From the IMG/VR virus record IMGVR_UViG_3300021425_000046, positions 1 to 55,533 of that record: a DNA stretch of 55,533 nt. The stretch is one strand, 5' to 3'. The stretch is from a virus (lineage: Duplodnaviria; Caudoviricetes). This document shows, piece by piece, positions 12,140-21,100 of this stretch (position 1 is its first letter; each line of letters opens with the position of its first letter). The position numbers and the translations under genes are program-made. The notes beneath the pieces are model-generated. The model was not told the origin of the DNA. It did no database searches and worked only from the letters and a program-made list of their open reading frames with translations.

Positions 12140-12211
12140 GGGACTGTTGCTTATTGGTTAAAGCCGTCGCCTTATAAGCGGCAGAACCGAGTTCAATTCT
12201 CGGCAGTCCTA
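12140..12211 (+). tRNA. tRNA-Ile(UAU)
   Basis: Acceptor GGGACTG/CAGTCCT, anticodon arm GTCGC-CTTATAA-GCGGC, TTCAATT T-loop. Confidence 0.9.
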
Positions 12212-12217
12212 CCTGCT

Positions 12218-12290
12218 GCTGGTTTAGCAATCTGGTGAATGCACCCGACTCATAATCGGATATAGGCGAGTTCAATCCTCGCAACCAGCA
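12218..12290 (+). tRNA. tRNA-Met (elongator) or Ile2, anticodon CAU
   Basis: Acceptor GCTGGTT/AACCAGC, anticodon loop CTCATAA, T-arm GCGAG-TTCAATC-CTCGC. Confidence 0.9.
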
Positions 12291-12291
12291 C

Positions 12292-12320
12292 TTGACAATC
12301 TCAGCAATCTATGCTATGAT
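12292..12320 (+). promoter_or_regulatory. sigma70-type promoter
   Basis: TTGACA-N17-TATGAT with extended TG, just upstream of tRNA-Leu. Confidence 0.85.
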
Positions 12321-12333
12321 TGTCTCATACCAC

Positions 12334-12418
12334 GGGGATGTGGTGGAAGTGGTAGACACACCAGACTTAAAATCTGTTGAGCATTGCGCTCGTGGGGGTT
12401 CAAGTCCCCCCGTCCCTA
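12334..12418 (+). tRNA. tRNA-Leu(UAA)
   Basis: Acceptor GGGGATG/CGTCCCT, anticodon loop CTTAAAA, long variable arm. Confidence 0.92.
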
Positions 12419-12419
12419 T

Positions 12420-12445
12420 TCTCACACTAAATATATTGTGTGGGA
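12420..12445 (+). promoter_or_regulatory. Late promoter (CTAAATA) inside an RBS-sequestering hairpin
   Basis: TCTCACAC-taaatatatt-GTGTGGGA; the 3' arm contains the GGGA 8 nt before ATG 12454. Confidence 0.55.
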
Positions 12446-12453
12446 TTTAACAC

Positions 12454-12726
12454 ATGAAATACAAGTACACTCTATCACAGCAATATTGCTTCTATATGGG
12501 AGAAGTTGTGCGTATGTATTTCATACAAGGTATGCCATATACCTTTGACGAACTACCACAAATAGTTCAAGATCATCCTTCTGTGCAAGCAGAAGCATTA
12601 CAACACAGAGATTATGATGATGAGTATCTTTTTATGACATCAAATTATTTGGTGTGTGAAGCTGCTCATCCACTTATGTTTGACCTTGAAGTTGACAATC
12701 CAGATTTATTACCCAAAGATGATTGA
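12454..12726 (+). CDS. Hypothetical cyanophage protein upstream of cpeT
   Basis: 90-aa ORF with RBS and late promoter; overlaps cpeT start. Confidence 0.75.
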   Translation: MKYKYTLSQQYCFYMGEVVRMYFIQGMPYTFDELPQIVQDHPSVQAEALQHRDYDDEYLFMTSNYLVCEAAHPLMFDLEVDNPDLLPKDD

Positions 12727-13246
12727 AAAATTTAAATCCTATCTAGTAGGTAAATTTGAAAACAAGAAACAAGCATTTAAAAATCCTAGTAAGTTTGCCT
12801 ACATTAGAATTACTCATGTTGATATTGGCGATGGTTTATTTTATGGAGAACAAGCATATAATTACAATTTAAAATCTCCTTACCGACAGTTTGTATTAGA
12901 GCCAGTTGAGGAGGACGATCAGATTCGTATTTTAAATTATGAAATTTTAGACAAACATCAGTTTAAAAATTGTCAAAACCTTGACAAATTAGATAGATCT
13001 ATGCTAAAATTGAAAGATGGTTGTGATGTAGTTGTAAAACTTGTAAACAATGTTGCTTTTCAAGGTGGTATAGAAGGTTGTGATTGTTATGTTAAATGGA
13101 TGGATCGTGACACTTATCTAAAAAATCAGATAGAGTTAGGATTAGATTATTATTTTGTTATTGACCAAGGATTTTGTGCAGAACACCATCATCAAATTTG
13201 GGGTTCTAAATATGGTAGATTTGAATTTGCTAGAATGCCTGTGTAG
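12719..13246 (+). CDS. cpeT: CpcT/CpeT-like (T-type) phycobilin lyase
   Basis: G.FEN..QAF.NP..FA.I, YGEQAY......PYRQ, GCD and D.G.......IWGS..G.FEF motifs of the CpcT/CpeT family. Confidence 0.9.
   Translation: MIEKFKSYLVGKFENKKQAFKNPSKFAYIRITHVDIGDGLFYGEQAYNYNLKSPYRQFVLEPVEEDDQIRILNYEILDKHQFKNCQNLDKLDRSMLKLKDGCDVVVKLVNNVAFQGGIEGCDCYVKWMDRDTYLKNQIELGLDYYFVIDQGFCAEHHHQIWGSKYGRFEFARMPV
12981..13010 (+). promoter_or_regulatory. Possible internal sigma70 promoter for downstream tRNAs
   Basis: TTGACA-N18-TAAAAT with extended TG, inside cpeT. Confidence 0.4.
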
Positions 13247-13310
13247 CTCAGCTGGATAGAGCAACGGTTTTGTAAACCGTAGGTCGTCGGTTCAAGTCCG
13301 ACCGTGGGCT
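13237..13310 (+). tRNA. tRNA-Thr(UGU), overlapping the cpeT stop codon
   Basis: Anticodon arm ACGGT-TTTGTAA-ACCGT; acceptor GCCTGTG/CGTGGGC with three G-U pairs. Confidence 0.85.
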
Positions 13311-13344
13311 TTGAAAGGACAGGAAATGTCCAGTTCTTTCAAAC

Positions 13345-13435
13345 GTAGGTGCCAAAACCGCTCCTCATCCCTAGTATTCTGTGGGTGAGTGAAAGTAAAG
13401 AGGGGTAACATAGGTAAAGTTATCTCCACCTACCA
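13345..13435 (+). ncRNA. Putative structured ncRNA (multi-stem, ends ACCA)
   Basis: Closing stem GTAGGTG/CACCTAC encloses CTCATCC/GGGTGAG and GGGGTAAC/GTTATCTC stems. Confidence 0.5.
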
Positions 13436-13439
13436 CAAA

Positions 13440-13517
13440 TCTTCTGCGTAGTCTATTGGTAAGGACACCCCGATAAGGGAGTTGGAAACTGGGTTCGATT
13501 CCCAGCCAGAGGAGCCA
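13440..13517 (+). ncRNA. tRNA-like RNA or pseudo-tRNA with collapsed anticodon arm and encoded CCA
   Basis: D-arm GTCT-ATTGGTAA-GGAC, perfect T-arm CTGGG-TTCGATT-CCCAG, bulged acceptor, anticodon stem only about 3 bp. Confidence 0.6.
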
Positions 13518-13560
13518 TCATTTGCGCTGGAAAGATAAACCAGAATGCCGTGATGGTTAT

Positions 13561-13642
13561 GTCGATGTGGCGGAATTGGTAGACGCACTGGGTTTAGGTT
13601 CCAGTGTCTTCGGACGTGGAGGTTCAAGTCCTCTCATCGACA
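13561..13642 (+). tRNA. tRNA-Leu(UAG)
   Basis: Acceptor GTCGATG/CATCGAC, anticodon loop TTTAGGT, variable arm GTC-TTCG-GAC. Confidence 0.92.
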
Positions 13643-13643
13643 T

Positions 13644-13671
13644 CGAATTTGGGTTTTCCAAATTCGTTTTT
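13644..13671 (+). terminator. Rho-independent terminator
   Basis: CGAATTTGG-gtttt-CCAAATTCG followed by a T run. Confidence 0.7.
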
Positions 13672-13735
13672 CAAATCCACAAAATGGGGAAAAAATTCCC
13701 CGCAAAAAAATCGCCAAAAAAGTCGAGGTAAAAAA

Positions 13736-13876
13736 ATGACGTTACTTTCAAAGAAAGATCACGAAATGGTTATCGAAGCACTTGAGGTATTAATTGAACA
13801 AAAAGATGAAAATACTCGTTTTGAATATTTAAATCTTTTGCAGTGGGTTAAAATCAAATCTAAAGATACGTTTTAA
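13736..13876 (+). CDS. Small hypothetical protein (MTLLSKKDHEMVIEAL...)
   Basis: GAGG RBS before ATG 13736; 46 aa. Confidence 0.65.
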   Translation: MTLLSKKDHEMVIEALEVLIEQKDENTRFEYLNLLQWVKIKSKDTF

Positions 13877-13878
13877 TT

Positions 13879-14289
13879 ATGTCTTTTCATAAATTTGTAT
13901 TTGGCGAAGAGAGGCCTGTTAAGGGAATAACTAGGGTTTGTAAAATTTGTAATATCGAAAAACCAATAGAATGTTATCACGTAAATCGTGGTTCGACACA
14001 TGATCGTCGTAGTGAGTGTAGAGATTGTAGAAAATCTGGGGGTGCAGCTAACTCAAAAGCAGCTATTAAATTGATGAAAAAACACAATATCACTAGACCA
14101 AAATTAGGCACTCCGTGTGCTTGTTGCGGTAGAACTGATAAACCGTTAGTTTGTGACCATATTCATGGGACAGACATAATACGTGGATTTACATGTGATA
14201 ATTGTAACGTGGGTATTGGAAGACTTGGTGATAACCTTTCTTCGCTAGAAAATGCTGTTAAATATCTTAGTGGAAAATATTTAACTTAA
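13879..14289 (+). CDS. Endonuclease VII-family (His-Me finger) nuclease, probable free-standing homing endonuclease
   Basis: CACCG...LVCDHIH...RGFTCDNCNVGIGRLGDN motif plus N-terminal CxxC...CxxC zinc finger. Confidence 0.85.
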   Translation: MSFHKFVFGEERPVKGITRVCKICNIEKPIECYHVNRGSTHDRRSECRDCRKSGGAANSKAAIKLMKKHNITRPKLGTPCACCGRTDKPLVCDHIHGTDIIRGFTCDNCNVGIGRLGDNLSSLENAVKYLSGKYLT

Positions 14290-14292
14290 TAT

Positions 14293-14364
<72 letters not shown>

Positions 14365-14406
14365 TTGGCGATACTGCCAAGAACCAACCCCTTCCGTGTG
14401 CGATAG

Positions 14407-14433
14407 AACCTCTCCTACATAAGGGGAGGTTTT
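14407..14433 (+). terminator. Rho-independent terminator
   Basis: AACCTCTCCT-acata-AGGGGAGGTT followed by Ts. Confidence 0.7.
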
Positions 14434-14448
14434 ATTGTATCTATTAAA

Positions 14449-15084
14449 ATGTATAAAGTATATGATAATATATTATCTAAATCTACCATAATTGATATTT
14501 GTAAAATTTTTTTATATCCATCTTTTCCGTGGTATATTAATCACACTTGCGAAAAGACATTAAGTGATAGATACGCTAATCAATATCCACAATTTCAAAA
14601 TTCTGTTCAGTTATATCATCCATTTTTATCTTATACACAAGTATGGAAAGAATTAGCTATAGATTATTATTATGTTGATAATCTAGAACAGGCGAATAAA
14701 GAAAAAAATATTATCAATAATTTAGTGAAAGAATTTTGTGATAATATTCAAGAAAATTTTAATGATATAGTAATATACAGAGCAAAATCAAATTTACTAT
14801 TACAAAATAATCAAATTACTCCAAATCCTCCACACATAGATTTGGTGGACATAAAGCATAAAGTTCTTTTGTATTATGTGAATGATTCTGATGGTGACAC
14901 TATAATTTACGAAGATAAATCGGCAGAAACAGTTGTGGATAGGATATCACCAAAACAGGGTAGAATTTTATTTTTTGACGGAAATTGCTATCATTCATCA
15001 TCTTCTCCTACTGTTAACAATAAGAGAATTGTCATTAATATTGATCTAGTAAACAAAAAGGATTTGCCTGGGGTTTCTGTATAA
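14449..15084 (+). CDS. 2OG-Fe(II) oxygenase superfamily protein
   Basis: PHID (HxD), YYVNDSDGDT, PKQGRILFFDG..YHSS and RIVIN motifs. Confidence 0.85.
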   Translation: MYKVYDNILSKSTIIDICKIFLYPSFPWYINHTCEKTLSDRYANQYPQFQNSVQLYHPFLSYTQVWKELAIDYYYVDNLEQANKEKNIINNLVKEFCDNIQENFNDIVIYRAKSNLLLQNNQITPNPPHIDLVDIKHKVLLYYVNDSDGDTIIYEDKSAETVVDRISPKQGRILFFDGNCYHSSSSPTVNNKRIVINIDLVNKKDLPGVSV

Positions 15085-15087
15085 ATA
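15080..15087 (+). promoter_or_regulatory. T4 late promoter
   Basis: Perfect TATAAATA upstream of the giant structural gene. Confidence 0.85.
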
Positions 15088-15127
15088 CATTGAAGAAAAG
15101 AACACGCAGCCCAGGGTTTCGGTAATT

Positions 15128-18100
15128 ATGGCTCTTACAAGACTTGATAATCTTTACTCAAGTAAGACGGGAAAATATTTATATGTTTCGCCTGATGACT
15201 TCAATGCAACAGACGAATTAGACAATAGAGGTAATTCGCCTTTAAGACCATTTAAAACAATTCAAAGAGCTTTTCTTGAAGTAGCAAGATTCTCTTATTT
15301 ACCTGGAAAAGATAACGATAGATTTGACCAGTTTAGCATCATGTTGATGCCTGGTGATCACTATATTGATAATCGTCCTGGTCTTATTGATCTTGATGAT
15401 GCTGATAGACAGCGTTATTTTGATGCTAGAAATCTCATCAATGCCAACCGAGACGAGGTTGTAGATAGAGCATTTGCTCAAATAATGATTGATTATCGTG
15501 AAGATCTCTGGGGAACTGACTGGGTAGTTCCTGGTGATGTAACGTCTGATGAGTTTTCACGTTACAAGGATGCATATCGTCTAATTCAAAAGAATAGACA
15601 AGATATTATTGATGGAGCTTATGCTGAAATTGCTATTCAGCATCCAACTTTTGTAAATCCAAATACAGAAAAGTGTCAGCGTGATATTGGGTACTTTATT
15701 GATGCAGTTTCTCTTGATATTTCTCTTGGTGGTGCTAATAAGTATACCAGAAAGTTCCTCCAAAATTATTTCATTGGAAATACCTGGAAGCCAAATACTC
15801 TTGAGGGAGAAGAGGTAGAATCCAACACTGCATTTAATAAAGCAGCCGCTTTAATGAAGCAGGCCATTGCTAATCAATTGACATACAAAGATCTCAGTAT
15901 CACTGCAGATTCTGCAACTGAATCAAATGTAAGTCCAGCATCCTGTGGTAATGTTCAAAATGCTATTGGTACACTCGCTATTCTTGTAACTTCATATATT
16001 ACTCAAGGTAATATTGATGATTTAGACACTACTGCTCCAGAAACAGTTCCAGAAGCTGGCGCTGGAATGTCTAAGTGTAAGCGTGATATTGGATATATTG
16101 TAGATGCTGTGGCATCTGATATTGGAAATGGTGGAAATGCCAGCATCATTGCAGCAACAAAGGCATATTTTAATTCTAACGGAACTCCAATTTCTAATGG
16201 ATTAGTTGGAGAAGAAACGCAATCGGTTATTGCGTTTAATGCTGCCAGAGATATGATGCAGAAGGCAGTAACTAACCAGTTATATGCCAAAGATTTGACT
16301 CTATCCGAGGGTCCAGCTGTTTATGCTAATGGCGGTGCAGCGATTCCAAACCTTCCATCAGGAAATGCTAATACCTGTGTGGATGTTCAAACAACAATTG
16401 CTACACTAATTGCTGTAATTACGTCTGCTATCGAAGATGGTAATCTGGATGGTCTTGCAGATCTTGAAATCAGTGGCGATATTCCTGTATTCTATTTTGA
16501 TCAAGCAAAGCAAGAATGGAATGATCAGTCAGTATTAGATCTTTCTAACCCAGATAACGTTCTTTACAAGTTTAACGCTTCTACTGGTGGTGCTATTGTA
16601 CCCAGAGGTTGTTCACTTGTTGGTTATGACCTTCGTAGAACAATTATTCGTCCTCTTTATGTTCCAGATCCTGCGGACGGAACACAAGGAAGAACTTCTA
16701 TCTTCAACCTAACAGGTGGTTGCTATATTTGGCAGTTTACTATTAAAGATGGAGATCTAACAGAAAATTCACCTCTTTATGATGCAAATGATAGAGTTGG
16801 TAAGGTATATTTCCAAAAAGGTAATAATACTCAATTAGCTATTCCTGAGTATTCGCACCATAAGATCACAATTATGGAATATGCGGAGGACTTTGAGCTT
16901 GAAAAGTATTACCAGAAAGTTGGTAAGTCCTTCTCACTATTCCAGCCTACAATTGATGATGGCGATTTTGAGGCACTACCACAAGAAAACAGAATTGTTG
17001 GACCACTTTCTGACACCAGAAGCATCGTAAATCTACGTCTTGTTTCTCAATCTGTGGTTGGTGGTAGAGATAAAACTCTTATCGAAGCAACCACTAAAAT
17101 TCCACATGGTTACTTTATTGGCCAATATATTGCTATTATTGATAGTGGACTAAATGATCTTCTTAACGGTACATTTAAGGTAGTTGCAATTGATGATGAA
17201 GATCCAAAGAAATTTAGATATGAAGTAGAAACCACTCCAACCATTTTAGGTCTTGAAATTAATGCAGAAGGATACGACGCTGGTTCTACTCCTGCTTTAA
17301 GTGTAAACTGTAGAGCACAAGCAGAAATTGATTCAGTTGAATCTGCATCTCCATATGTATTCAATTGCTCAATCCGTTCTACGTGGGGCATCTGTGGTAT
17401 GTGGGCGGATGGTGCCAAATCAACTGGCTTCCGCTCAATGGTTGTTGCTCAGTATACTGGCGTTTCTCTCCAAAAGGATGATAGAGCATTTATTCGCTAT
17501 GACGAGTTTAGTAATACTTGGAATCAAGCATCTTTAACTGATGCATTTGCTACTATTCCTTATCACACCAAAGGCGATGCATATTGGAAGGATGATTGGA
17601 GAAACTTCCACATTCGTGCTTCCAATGACGCATTCATTCAGTGTGTTTCGGTCTTTGCTGTTGGATTCTTTGATCACTTCCTGATGGAGTCGGGTGGTGA
17701 TATGTCTATCACCAACTCTAACTCCAACTTCGGTAACACTTCACTTCATGCAACTGGATTTAAAGGATTTGCATTTAATCAAGATAAAGGTGGATACATT
17801 ACTGATATCATTCCTGTAGAAGAAGTTGATGACAGTGAATTTAATCAAGAGGATCAAAAATATTATTCAATTGCTATTCAGTCTACAAAAGATCCATCAA
17901 ATAAAACTAAGCTATATTATGGTACTGATGAAGCATATAATCCATTTCAAAAGCCCGCTACTTCTATTAATGGTTATAGAATAGGTGCAAAAACTGGAGA
18001 AAAATTATTTGTAAAAATTAAATCTAGTGTAGGAACAACTATTCCATTTGAATCTACTGTATCTCCTAATGGATTTAAGCGTTATACAGTATCTCTAGAT

Positions 18101-21100
18101 ACTCTAAATCCAGACGGTATTACTATCAATAATTTAGCACAAGATGCCGCTAATTTGATTGAAGTAAATAAACAATTTATCCAAAAAGAAGCATATGGAT
18201 ATATTACTGCTAAGTATCCAGCACTGCTAACCAATACTAATATCACTATTTCTAAGTGCGAAAGAGACATTGGCTATTTTGTTGATGCTGTTGTTTCTGA
18301 CCTAAGATTAGGTGGAAACATTAATACTATCCAAGCAGCAGAAGGCTACTATGTTGGTGGTCAGCTTGCATATATTCCAAATGAACTTAACGAATCGCTA
18401 GAAGCATACGATTACGTTAAGAATCTGTGTATTGCTGCGATGAGAAACTTCGATTATCTCATCAGACAGTGTAATACAGTAAATGGATCTGCTATTGTTG
18501 ATATTGGTGATACAACTGGTATTATCATTGGTATGAAAGCTACTCAGTATGAGTATAATATCATAAACTTTACTAATGGTAGATTAAATGAAGGAGCAAC
18601 ACCAATTACCTCCGCTATTCCTTCAGGCGCTTATGTAAAGAGAATCATAGATGGTTCTAGAATTGAACTTGGAACTTCTGGTAGTTACTTAGGATCTGGT
18701 AATACTTTACCAGCAATCTTAACTTCTGGATCAGTATACATTTATTTTGAATTGCCACAAACGAATAGTATTACAGATAATGAAAATAACTTATCTGGTG
18801 TTTGGTCTTCTGTCCCAGCCAAAAAAGATCCTACTGTTATTCAAGATGCTACATCTTGGGAATTAATTGGTCCTGATGGGTATCCTGAGTGTAGTGGTAT
18901 TGCTAACACTATCATTGGATATTTTACCAATATTGCTCTCATTCTAGGTCAAGGATTGACACCAGTTGGTGGTAGGTGGGTTGATGCTTCAAATTTAATT
19001 CTCGCAAACAAAGAATTGATTGCTAATGAAGCAGTAGAAAGAATGCTTACCGCAAATCCAGGATTTGCTGTTCCTGGTGGTAATCAAAATTGTATTGATG
19101 ATGTACTTCAAATCATTGATGCATTAGCATTTAACGTCAAATATGGCAGCAATAATAGGATTTATGATGCTGCAAAGATTTATGTTCAACAGCCAGAATT
19201 GTTAAATGGGGAAAGAGATGAATCGGTTGCGGTTTATCTTCAAGTAAGAGATATGGCAATTCAAGCCATGAGAAATGAACCTATTTTTATCCAGGGTTCT
19301 CATGGTTTAACACAAACAATTGATAATACTGTACTTTTAGAGTATGATTCAAATGGCAATTTAGTTGTTCCTGCATGTGCTGATGTAGCAAGTGCTATCA
19401 CTACATTAATGGCTATTATTACTGGTGCTATTGGCACGGAAGTAGAGCCTGGTGACCTTGTTGGTATCGTAAGAACTGCACCAATATTTACCAACATCAC
19501 TAGGGTAGAGCCAGTTTTAGATACAGCAAATCTTGCAGCAAGAGCAACAATTTTTACTGTTAATACTGGCGGCGGTTTATCAAATCCACATAATTTTGAA
19601 ACGGGAACACCAGTTCGTCTTATACCAAAAGCAAGAGAAGGTACAAATCCAGATAAGAGAGTTATTAGATTACCAAGAGGATTTGAAACAAATACTGTTT
19701 ACTACGTAATTGCTCCTGGCAGAAAGACTACACCAGAAGATTATTCTGATTCTTTAAAGTATCAAGATATTTTCACGGCAGACTCATCAACCCGTTTAAT
19801 GCTTGCATCTACTAAAGAAAATGCTGCTGCTGGCATCTATATCTATTCTTCCGAAACATCTGCAATTGATCCTGAAGTAGAAATTGAACTCCAGCAATAT
19901 GTATTAGATAACTCCTATGATCTACACCAATACTTATGTAATTTTGCAGCAGGACAAACTGATGTAATTCAGACAGATGTTCCACATATTTTTGATGTAC
20001 CAAGTTCTACAAATACAGTGCATAAAGTATTTTTTAGAACTTTCGGAGATCCATCAGAATCTGAGCTACCACAAATTTCTGTAAATGGCGTAAGTGAGGA
20101 GGTAAATCCATCTAAGTATTATTATGCTAGATATGTAACTAATAAAACATTTGCTATTTTTGATACTGCGGCACAAGCTATTGCTGGCACTCCAAGAATT
20201 ACATTTACTCCAGGATTTGGTAAGAATTTTTACGTCTTCGCAGATAAGAGAGAAAGCCCAGTAAAATATGATGCTACACTTCAGAACGATGATACTTCAA
20301 CTGGTCAATGGTATATTAATGTATTAGATGAAACTTCAAATCCAAATAATATTATCGCAAGATTCCAAGAACTTGGAGACACGTTAAAAGATTCTAGAAG
20401 TAAGAATACTTATTTCACTCGTCTGCTTGACAACAGAGAAAAAGAAGATAGAATTTATCGTTTACGTTATGTAATTCCACAATATGCTGATGGTGTTCGT
20501 GATCCATTAAATGGTTTCGTTCTCAAAGCAAGAACTGATACCACAAGAAAACTTCTCGCACAAAAAATTATTTTAAAACCAGTTGCTGCTGGTACTCCAG
20601 ATGTTGCATACTTTGAAATTCAAATACCATCAGAAACTGGAGGAACAATTATTCAGCAACTAGGATTAACCAAAAATGAATTAGATCCAACATTTAATTA
20701 TGATCCTTATGATCCAGCTCAAGTAAAAATTGTTGATAGCGACAGAACCTTCAGTAAAGTTTCTTTCAGTATTCAATCAGCAAGAAAAGTAGAAGTAAGT
20801 GGTACTAATTTACTTGAACTAACAGTATTCGATCATACGATTACAAATGATGCTCTTAAAAATGAGACATTTGTAACTGTTAAGATTGAAGCTCCGCAGG
20901 AAGGAACATTTAGATCGACCGATGGATTTAATGAAATTACTTGGAATGGAAATTCTTCTGGATCTGCTATTGTTCAATCTTATTTTAACATTCCAGAAAC
21001 AAATGAACATTACCTAATCTTACGTGCAGTTACTGGTTCAATTAATTATAATGCTCTCATTGACACAACTTTCTACCAGCCACTGCTTGATGTAAATAAT

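Follow-up and report, generated by a model that had tools for sequence, protein, structure and literature searches.

The stretch of DNA analysed here, referred to below as the window, comprises positions 1-55,533 of the IMG/VR virus record IMGVR_UViG_3300021425_000046. This 55.5-kb viral contig fragment is about 29% complete and spans the block of tail and baseplate genes of a T4-like cyanophage. Within the block, the T-type phycobiliprotein lyase gene cpeT is followed by the open reading frame (ORF) of a giant virion protein, in which four repeats with a predicted phycobiliprotein-type fold were recognized (Table 1). A sequence-only reading of the same DNA had placed cpeT about 1.9 kb upstream of the giant gene, in agreement with the 1881 nt counted from the cpeT stop to the giant ORF, and had proposed that the lyase acts on the phage's own virion protein.

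Table 1. Features of the cpeT-giant gene region, with positions in the window (aa, amino acids; nt, nucleotides).
Feature	Position	Strand	Evidence or remark
CTAAATA, late-promoter-like box	12427-12433	+	20 nt before the ATG of ORF 12454
Small ORF, 90 aa, 'T4-like GC730' type	12454-12726	+	Stop overlaps cpeT start
cpeT, T-type phycobiliprotein lyase gene, 175 aa	12719-13246	+	PF06206, 4o4o and 5hi8 matches
Endonuclease VII ORF	13879-14289		Between cpeT and giant gene
Weak 2OG-Fe(II) oxygenase ORF	14449-15084		Pfam, weak match; between cpeT and giant gene
TATAAATA, T4-type late-promoter box	15080-15087	+	Exact; 41 nt before giant gene ATG
Giant virion protein (short-tail-fibre or baseplate type), 3514 aa	15128-25672	+	ORF; homologues; neighbours
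Repeat 1	15560-16033	+	Cys183 at 15674-15676; second Cys273 at 15944-15946; hidden Markov model (HMM), AlphaFold2 (AF2), Foldseek, PF00502
Repeat 2, without first helix	16019-16465	+	Cys317 at 16076-16078; second Cys417 at 16376-16378; blastp, HMM
Repeat 3, split by insertion	18137-18982	+	Cys1044 at 18257-18259; second Cys1255 at 18890-18892, within ECSGIANTIIGYF
Repeat 4, Cys-Ile-Asp-Asp variant	18974-19477	+	Cys1322 at 19091-19093; second Cys1417 at 19376-19378

The cpeT product was matched by Pfam PF06206 over profile positions 2-181 of 181 (E 4.6e-37; 128.1 bits against a cut-off of 21) and aligned in full length with the solved Nostoc CpcT chain 4o4o (query 8-173, chain 13-187; E 1.5e-20). 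The 136-aa chain 5hi8, deposited as 'Antenna protein' and presumably the CpeT of phage P-HM1, was matched with an E of 1.4e-6. Thirty-two columns were invariant among 23 CpeT relatives; P54, Y55, R56 and D149 were invariant in the 23 phage sequences and aligned with the same residues of CpcT, and this Pro-Tyr-Arg and Asp are taken here to be the bilin-pocket residues described in the CpcT structure paper. Judged from these alignments, the window cpeT is a normal, complete T-type lyase gene, the enzymatic role being predicted. It shares the full-length alignment and the family match with the T-type lyases CpcT and CpeT, and differs from other members in being a long phage form (about 175 aa), coupled to a phage-only ORF and situated beside tail genes.

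The giant protein is a member of the giant gp7-like baseplate wedge/short-tail-fibre proteins of T4-like cyanophages, and its homologues are annotated as short tail fibre, tail protein, baseplate wedge/gp7 or virion structural protein. Long homologues numbered 686; among the 120 listed, nearly all had a precomputed PF00502 match, and one, from S-RSM4, was named 'putative short tail fibre'. PHROG families matched by ORFs of the window included tail protein, gp5-type hub with lysozyme, short tail fibre proteins and tail collar protein, and the ORFs neighbouring the giant gene matched tail, baseplate and short-tail-fibre families.

Whole, the giant protein was matched by the Pfam family Phycobilisome (PF00502) with 34 bits (cut-off 22.2), profile positions 28-95 being covered. 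Three of the four repeats were matched separately, repeat 1 alone with 23 bits (E 8.6e-5), and repeats 3 and 4 with 14 and 15.8 bits, respectively, under the cut-off. The four copies are paralogous (blastp among copies, E 1e-21 to 4e-9). When a profile of 26 repeat copies from the window and IMG/VR relatives was searched against the PDB sequences, the best 60 of 97 matches were all phycobiliproteins (best E 1.8e-4). An AF2 model of giant residues 145-301 was obtained with a pLDDT of 90.6 and a pTM of 0.88. Its Foldseek comparison with the PDB gave phycobiliproteins only among the matches listed, mostly phycoerythrin beta chains (TMq 0.68-0.71, root-mean-square deviation about 3 A over about 158 columns, probability 1.00), at E-values of only about 1e-3. 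On the predicted model and the profile matches, the repeats are true phycobiliprotein-fold domains. They share with the beta subunits of phycoerythrin and phycocyanin (PF00502) the globin-like helical fold, spanning helices B to H. The X-Y helices at the N terminus, which build the alpha-beta heterodimer, are absent, the alignments starting at phycobiliprotein residue about 36-40 and the repeat model opening with a helix aligned to helix B. Because the X-Y helices are lacking, the domain is regarded as a captured and remodelled phycobiliprotein and not as an antenna subunit. Unlike beta subunits, the phage repeats have longer loops and no alpha partner, their C-terminal half has no detectable sequence similarity, and they occur in tandem within tail or baseplate proteins of 2000-8000 aa, with four copies in the present protein and as many as 35 in relatives. 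In repeat 3, the middle helix and the final Cys-helix are separated by about 130-150 inserted aa (18440-18886, residues about 1105-1253).

The repeat family comprised 1315 representatives at E ≤1e-3. Among small proteins (81-336 aa), 21 were found by profile search, none of them a true phycobiliprotein or a clear stand-alone form of the repeat; the best-scoring small matches came mostly from contigs of about 1 kb. Searching the repeat against plasmids with tblastn gave chance matches only (E 8).

KCxRDxGY-type sites were present at Cys183, Cys317 and Cys1044 of the giant protein, with the variant NCIDD at 1322. Conservation was counted over 1477 domain matches in 121 giant homologues. Of 946 copies, 99% had the first Cys, 91% the Arg and 100% the Asp, the Arg position being Asp in 8% of copies, as in repeat 4; the second Cys was kept in 98% of 783 copies and Asp148 in 98% of 829. 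Comparison by hhalign with 53 real CpcB sequences from metagenome loci aligned phage positions 4-65 with CpcB 40-108 (E 7.6e-4), the local alignment ending at 65, and paired Asp148 with CpcB Asp39 and Cys183-x-Arg-Asp with the Cys-Leu-Arg-Asp of CpcB on helix E. The alignments with solved chains likewise placed the repeat motif on the phycobiliprotein Cys-x-Arg-Asp (Cys84, Arg86, Asp87). In phycobiliproteins, the Asp and Arg of helix E lie in contact with the bilin at Cys84, as does Asp39 with the bilin at beta-155. The Cys84-type motif was also nearly universal in 141 further representatives of the family, with the first Cys in 1337, the Arg in 1287 and the Asp in 1358 of 1384 repeats.

The second Cys lies right before the last helix, the likely place of beta-Cys153/155 (residue 129 of the AF2 model, last helix 130-149), and a forced global profile alignment put it on CpcB Cys153 with low confidence. 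On a scoring matrix derived from 50 real CpcB Cys153 13-mers, ECSGIANTIIGYF (giant residues 1254-1266) ranked first of 3502 giant windows, a score reached by 2 of 300 shuffles. The remaining three second-Cys windows ranked 10, 15 and 22, so that the four were the top four of 19 Cys-anchored windows; since the copies are paralogous, these ranks count as one observation. Position, fold matches that are mostly to beta chains, forced alignment and this weak sequence pattern make it likely that the second Cys is equivalent to beta-Cys153/155. The C-terminal halves of the repeats gave no PF00502 match (0 of 10). Of the repeats proposed as lyase substrate by the sequence-only reading, the second Cys agrees with its Cys155-like sites, and the KCxRDxGY motif itself is of the Cys84 type.

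Co-occurrence of cpeT and the repeats was determined by profile search of the whole records of 28 T4-like cyanophages, and the two were concordant throughout. Both features were present in 25 genomes and neither in three (P-SSM2, S-SM2 and S-SSM7), with no discordant genome; the cpeT call in S-SSM4 was made via a Pfam check (23.4 bits, cut-off 21). All ten genomes selected via the repeat had cpeT, all ten selected via cpeT had repeats, and eight selected independently of either feature were divided into five with both and three with neither. In most genomes cpeT mapped to 13-20 kb and the gp7-like giant gene with the repeats to 55-75 kb; because the two are 40-55 kb apart, a single deletion cannot remove both loci. 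The control gene psbD was missing from a different set (P-RSM6, P-SSM2, P-TIM40, S-SSM4 and S-SSM7). On a maximum-likelihood tree of one neighbouring tail protein (26 rows, with S-SSM4, S-SKS1, P-SSM4 and Syn19 excluded for partial or missing matches), the three phages with neither feature required at least two changes, and S-SSM7 was sister (support 98/97) to S-SCSM2R, which has both. In these three phages, a fibre ORF of 1.9-2.3 thousand aa is retained that is homologous in part and has no repeats. Across clades, the tail-protein alignment was too divergent for an IMG/VR scan, and the scans with single proteins of P-SSM2, S-SSM7 and S-SM2 returned mostly short fragments, unfit for a co-occurrence test.

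By tblastn, the repeat was found in 315 records and cpeT in 74, all of them cyanophages; no repeat-bearing isolate phage of a non-cyanobacterial host was among the 315. The shortfall of cpeT is an artefact of its divergence, and the figure of 241 of 315 repeat-bearing records without cpeT was rejected, the profile search finding a shorter, divergent cpeT there. A CpeT scan of genome contigs gave one locus, on a phage-like contig inside a bacterial bin. Bilin reductase genes (PF05996) were detected in 8 of 29 isolate records, five of them from phages isolated on Prochlorococcus.

Synteny was examined in 80 IMG/VR loci whose CpeT was 40-67% identical to that of the window. Downstream sequence of at least 4.5 kb was available for 51 loci, belonging to one large clade. 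Each of the 51 had a repeat-bearing ORF downstream on the same strand, with its start 40-3130 nt after cpeT, and in none was such an ORF upstream or on the opposite strand. In P-HM2, P-RSM6 and S-WAM1, cpeT lay amid hub and fibre genes, with no repeat within 6 kb. The adjacency of cpeT and repeats is a feature of the S-PM2-like clade, and their co-occurrence is general.

The ATG of cpeT overlaps the TGA of the 90-aa ORF (ATGATTGA), for which no match was found in Pfam or the Atlas. Homologues in S-PM2, Syn1 and S-WAM2 bear the GC730 label, and a GC730-type homologue lay immediately upstream of cpeT in 79 of 80 related IMG/VR loci; this ORF could be a lyase partner. In S-WAM1, the GC730-type ORF is separate from cpeT. 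Both the coupling and the late-type element pointed out earlier were present, and an NTAAATA box stood 20-42 nt before the GC730-type ORF in 75 of the 77 related loci having upstream sequence (L260 and L283 were without upstream sequence, L272 and L277 without the box). By frequency the box finds no support: CTAAATA occurred 6 times in the window against 14.4 expected from shuffles. The support for the box is its positional conservation in relatives. ATAAATA was likewise rarer than in shuffles (15 against 25.2), and the coding (+) strand held all 6 CTAAATA and 10 of the 15 ATAAATA words (window 1-55533); this scarcity would fit selection against stray late-promoter boxes. The cpeT pair has CTAAATA only, and the giant gene has the exact TATAAATA. 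From these elements, the GC730-cpeT pair is probably transcribed from a late-type promoter inside the tail gene block. Three RNA runs were matched, each with only 6-7% of the sampled words from the stretch.

The best single reading of the locus is a phage CpeT lyase with a virion acceptor. It is favoured as accounting best for the fold, the conserved bilin-site residues, the concordant occurrence of cpeT and repeats, their synteny and the late-type box taken together, and it is put forward tentatively, its chance being rated somewhat below even. From the fold, conserved residues, co-occurrence, synteny and promoter box, which are established here, we infer every biochemical step as follows. 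On this reading, the four giant domains descend from a beta-type phycobiliprotein and keep two sets of residues by which true phycobiliproteins hold bilins, the Cys84 site (Cys-x-Arg-Asp) and the beta-153/155 site (Cys with the Asp39 equivalent). During particle assembly, phage CpeT would attach a host- or phage-made bilin to the second Cys of the repeats, and the Cys84-type site would be filled autocatalytically or by a host S-type lyase. The resulting virion would bear covalent bilins, whose most attractive use would be to sense light at the baseplate or fibre and thereby gate adsorption. A complex prediction for CpeT and repeat 1 scored 0.02 and 0.11 against a mark of 0.32; it was run without controls and is uninformative either way.

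Several observations weigh against a lyase-plus-acceptor system. As read from the alignments, the best-conserved site is of the Cys84 type and not of the beta-153/155 type. Cys84-type sites are served by S/U- or E/F-type lyases, and we know of no T-type lyase that serves them; an S-type lyase gene was found in 0 of 37 phage records. In the 141 further representatives, the second Cys was present in only 178 of the 571 repeats reaching that column. The co-occurrence itself was obtained on a set in which 20 of 28 genomes had been selected for matching one of two queries, and shared descent confounds both of these lines, co-occurrence as well as synteny: in the single-gene tree, the phages with neither feature all belong to one broad group. 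Outside the T4-like phages, S-SKS1 carries a single two-Cys repeat but lacks cpeT, and bilin reductase genes occur in P-SSM2 and S-SSM7, both without repeats and without cpeT.

A single-Cys subfamily adds to these points. Of the 124 proteins having five or more repeats, 41 belonged to it (609 repeats in all); these kept Cys, Arg and Asp, and had the second Cys in 2 of 95 repeats. No cpeT, psbA/psbD or hli was found in eight of its contigs (26-67% complete), and gp23 was found in all five contigs tested. The capsid protein of one of them (G004) was nearest to that of an uncultured phage (56%), followed at 52% each by those of a Flavobacterium phage and a Microcystis phage; compared with isolates, the giant protein of the subfamily matched cyanophage proteins only, at 24-37% identity. 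The repeats may thus exist where no phycobilin is made. The contrast proposed as a check by the sequence-only reading, between cyanophages and phages of non-phototrophs, held among the isolate records and is less sharp with these contigs without cpeT. If the hosts were heterotrophs, the conservation of Cys-x-Arg-Asp there would not be due to phycobilins. The subfamily cuts both ways, as it also fits the rule 'no T-site Cys, no cpeT'. Proteins of this subfamily (P0142-P0146 and similar; loci L421-L448) have up to 35 repeat copies each, and on their T4-like contigs only a few kb separate gp23 from the giant gene.

Under the strongest alternative, cpeT is directed at the host, for phycoerythrin or phycocyanin or as a buffer of the bilin pool, and the repeats are pigment-free structural domains in which Cys, Arg and Asp help the domain to fold, bind metal or contact a receptor, so that the co-occurrence reflects ancestry and gene order. 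We rate this as rather unlikely. The gene order of tail blocks is conserved generally, the three genomes with neither feature fall together in the tree, and the single-Cys subfamily keeps Cys-x-Arg-Asp in contigs in which no photosynthesis-related gene was found, all of which agree with it. It leaves unaccounted for bilin-contact residues conserved at 91-100% in a domain otherwise diverged to 20-45% identity, the absence of discordant genomes despite the distance between the loci and the differing psbD control, and the place of cpeT behind a late-type box amid tail genes. Gasper 2017 is reported to have found that the CpeT of P-HM1 bound phycoerythrobilin tightly with no transfer to host beta-phycoerythrin. 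A host-directed cpeT is the usual reading in the parts of the literature consulted (PMC10452541, PMC2984593).

A quite improbable alternative is that the repeats bind bilin without the phage lyase, either autocatalytically, as reported for the phycobiliprotein domain of ApcE, or through host S- or T-type lyases, cpeT serving the host antennae or the holding of bilin. The predominance of the Cys84-type motif in the wider family, the irregular presence of the second Cys, the two-Cys repeat of S-SKS1 and the missing S-type lyase all point this way, the last implying that the Cys84-type site would be served by something besides a phage lyase. Two facts would then stand unexplained, namely the perfect co-occurrence of cpeT with two-Cys repeats together with their tight synteny, and the finding that the sole examined subfamily without the second Cys resides in contigs without cpeT (0 of 8).

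That the two nearly invariant Cys of each repeat form a disulfide stabilising an extracellular helical domain in oxidising sea water, the likeness to bilin sites being a relic, is very improbable: among 719 repeats covering both Cys columns, 706 had both, 9 the first only, 3 the second only and 1 neither, so that an obligate disulfide is unlikely because 12 of the 13 repeats losing a Cys lost just one, a whole subfamily keeps the first Cys alone, and the two bilin sites of known beta-phycobiliprotein structures are far apart, which we assume to apply if the repeat fold follows them.

The lyase-plus-acceptor reading was further extended to adsorption, namely that the particles of T4-like cyanophages are biliproteins in which CpeT-loaded repeats form a virion-borne light sensor that gates adsorption. 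This extension is doubtful, and we consider it unlikely. According to the parts consulted of Liu 2019 (PMC6628666), adsorption in the dark was absent for P-HM1 and P-HM2 and was present, below the level in the light, for P-SSM2, and Jia 2010 is cited there for the light-dependent, photosynthesis-independent adsorption of S-PM2. Among the phages of these adsorption studies that were searched here, P-HM2 and S-PM2 had both features and P-SSM2 neither (n = 3, anecdotal; P-HM1 was left out of the repeat search). The light-sensor reading fits two of these phages, P-HM2 with both features and P-SSM2 with neither.

Two questions are touched by the lyase-plus-acceptor reading and its light-sensor extension: why most T4-like cyanophages have a lone T-type lyase gene and no matching host operon, and why the adsorption of some cyanophages depends on light independently of host photosynthesis. 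If true, they would explain both the lone phage cpeT and the light-dependent adsorption, and a pigmented virion protein would, as far as we know, be the first structural component of a phage particle to absorb light and would put the phycobiliprotein fold to a new use outside antennae. Even without pigment, a host antenna fold has been captured and multiplied in tail proteins, to the copy and representative numbers given above. A precedent is ApcE, the core-membrane linker, whose phycobiliprotein domain has been reported to attach its bilin without a lyase. There too, a phycobiliprotein-type domain is embedded in a large multidomain protein, which supplies a precedent outside the antenna context of the subunits; ApcE differs in being a cellular phycobilisome part with one such domain and linker repeats, the phage domains being located in a virion protein. 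In the literature searched, no title or abstract was found on a phycobiliprotein-type domain in a cyanophage structural protein. The gene cpeT was recorded in 12 of 16 cyanomyoviruses by Sullivan 2010 (PMC3037559), in the consulted part of which its role is called unresolved.

From the hub genes to the giant gene, the order in the window is a seven-tRNA island, the 90-aa ORF, cpeT, the endonuclease VII ORF, the 2OG-Fe(II) oxygenase ORF and the giant gene. The interval between cpeT and the giant ORF, which holds the two ORFs at 13879-15084, is an insertion hot spot, given the wide range of spacing among relatives. The seven tRNA genes flank cpeT (window 12140-14365), with Ile, Met and Leu before it, and Thr, one with an undefined two-base anticodon (13440-13517), Leu and Asn after it. 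The tRNA-Thr gene (13237-13310) overlaps the final cpeT codons, and such a cpeT-tRNA junction is likewise annotated in S-CAM1, S-PM2, S-WAM2 and S-RSM4. In the S-PM2 record AJ630128, 14 annotated tRNA features (168556-170110; L018) fall within the giant coding sequence S-PM2p218, and the tRNA coordinates of this record look misplaced. By profile search, phycobiliprotein-like repeats lie there in an open 3792-aa frame.

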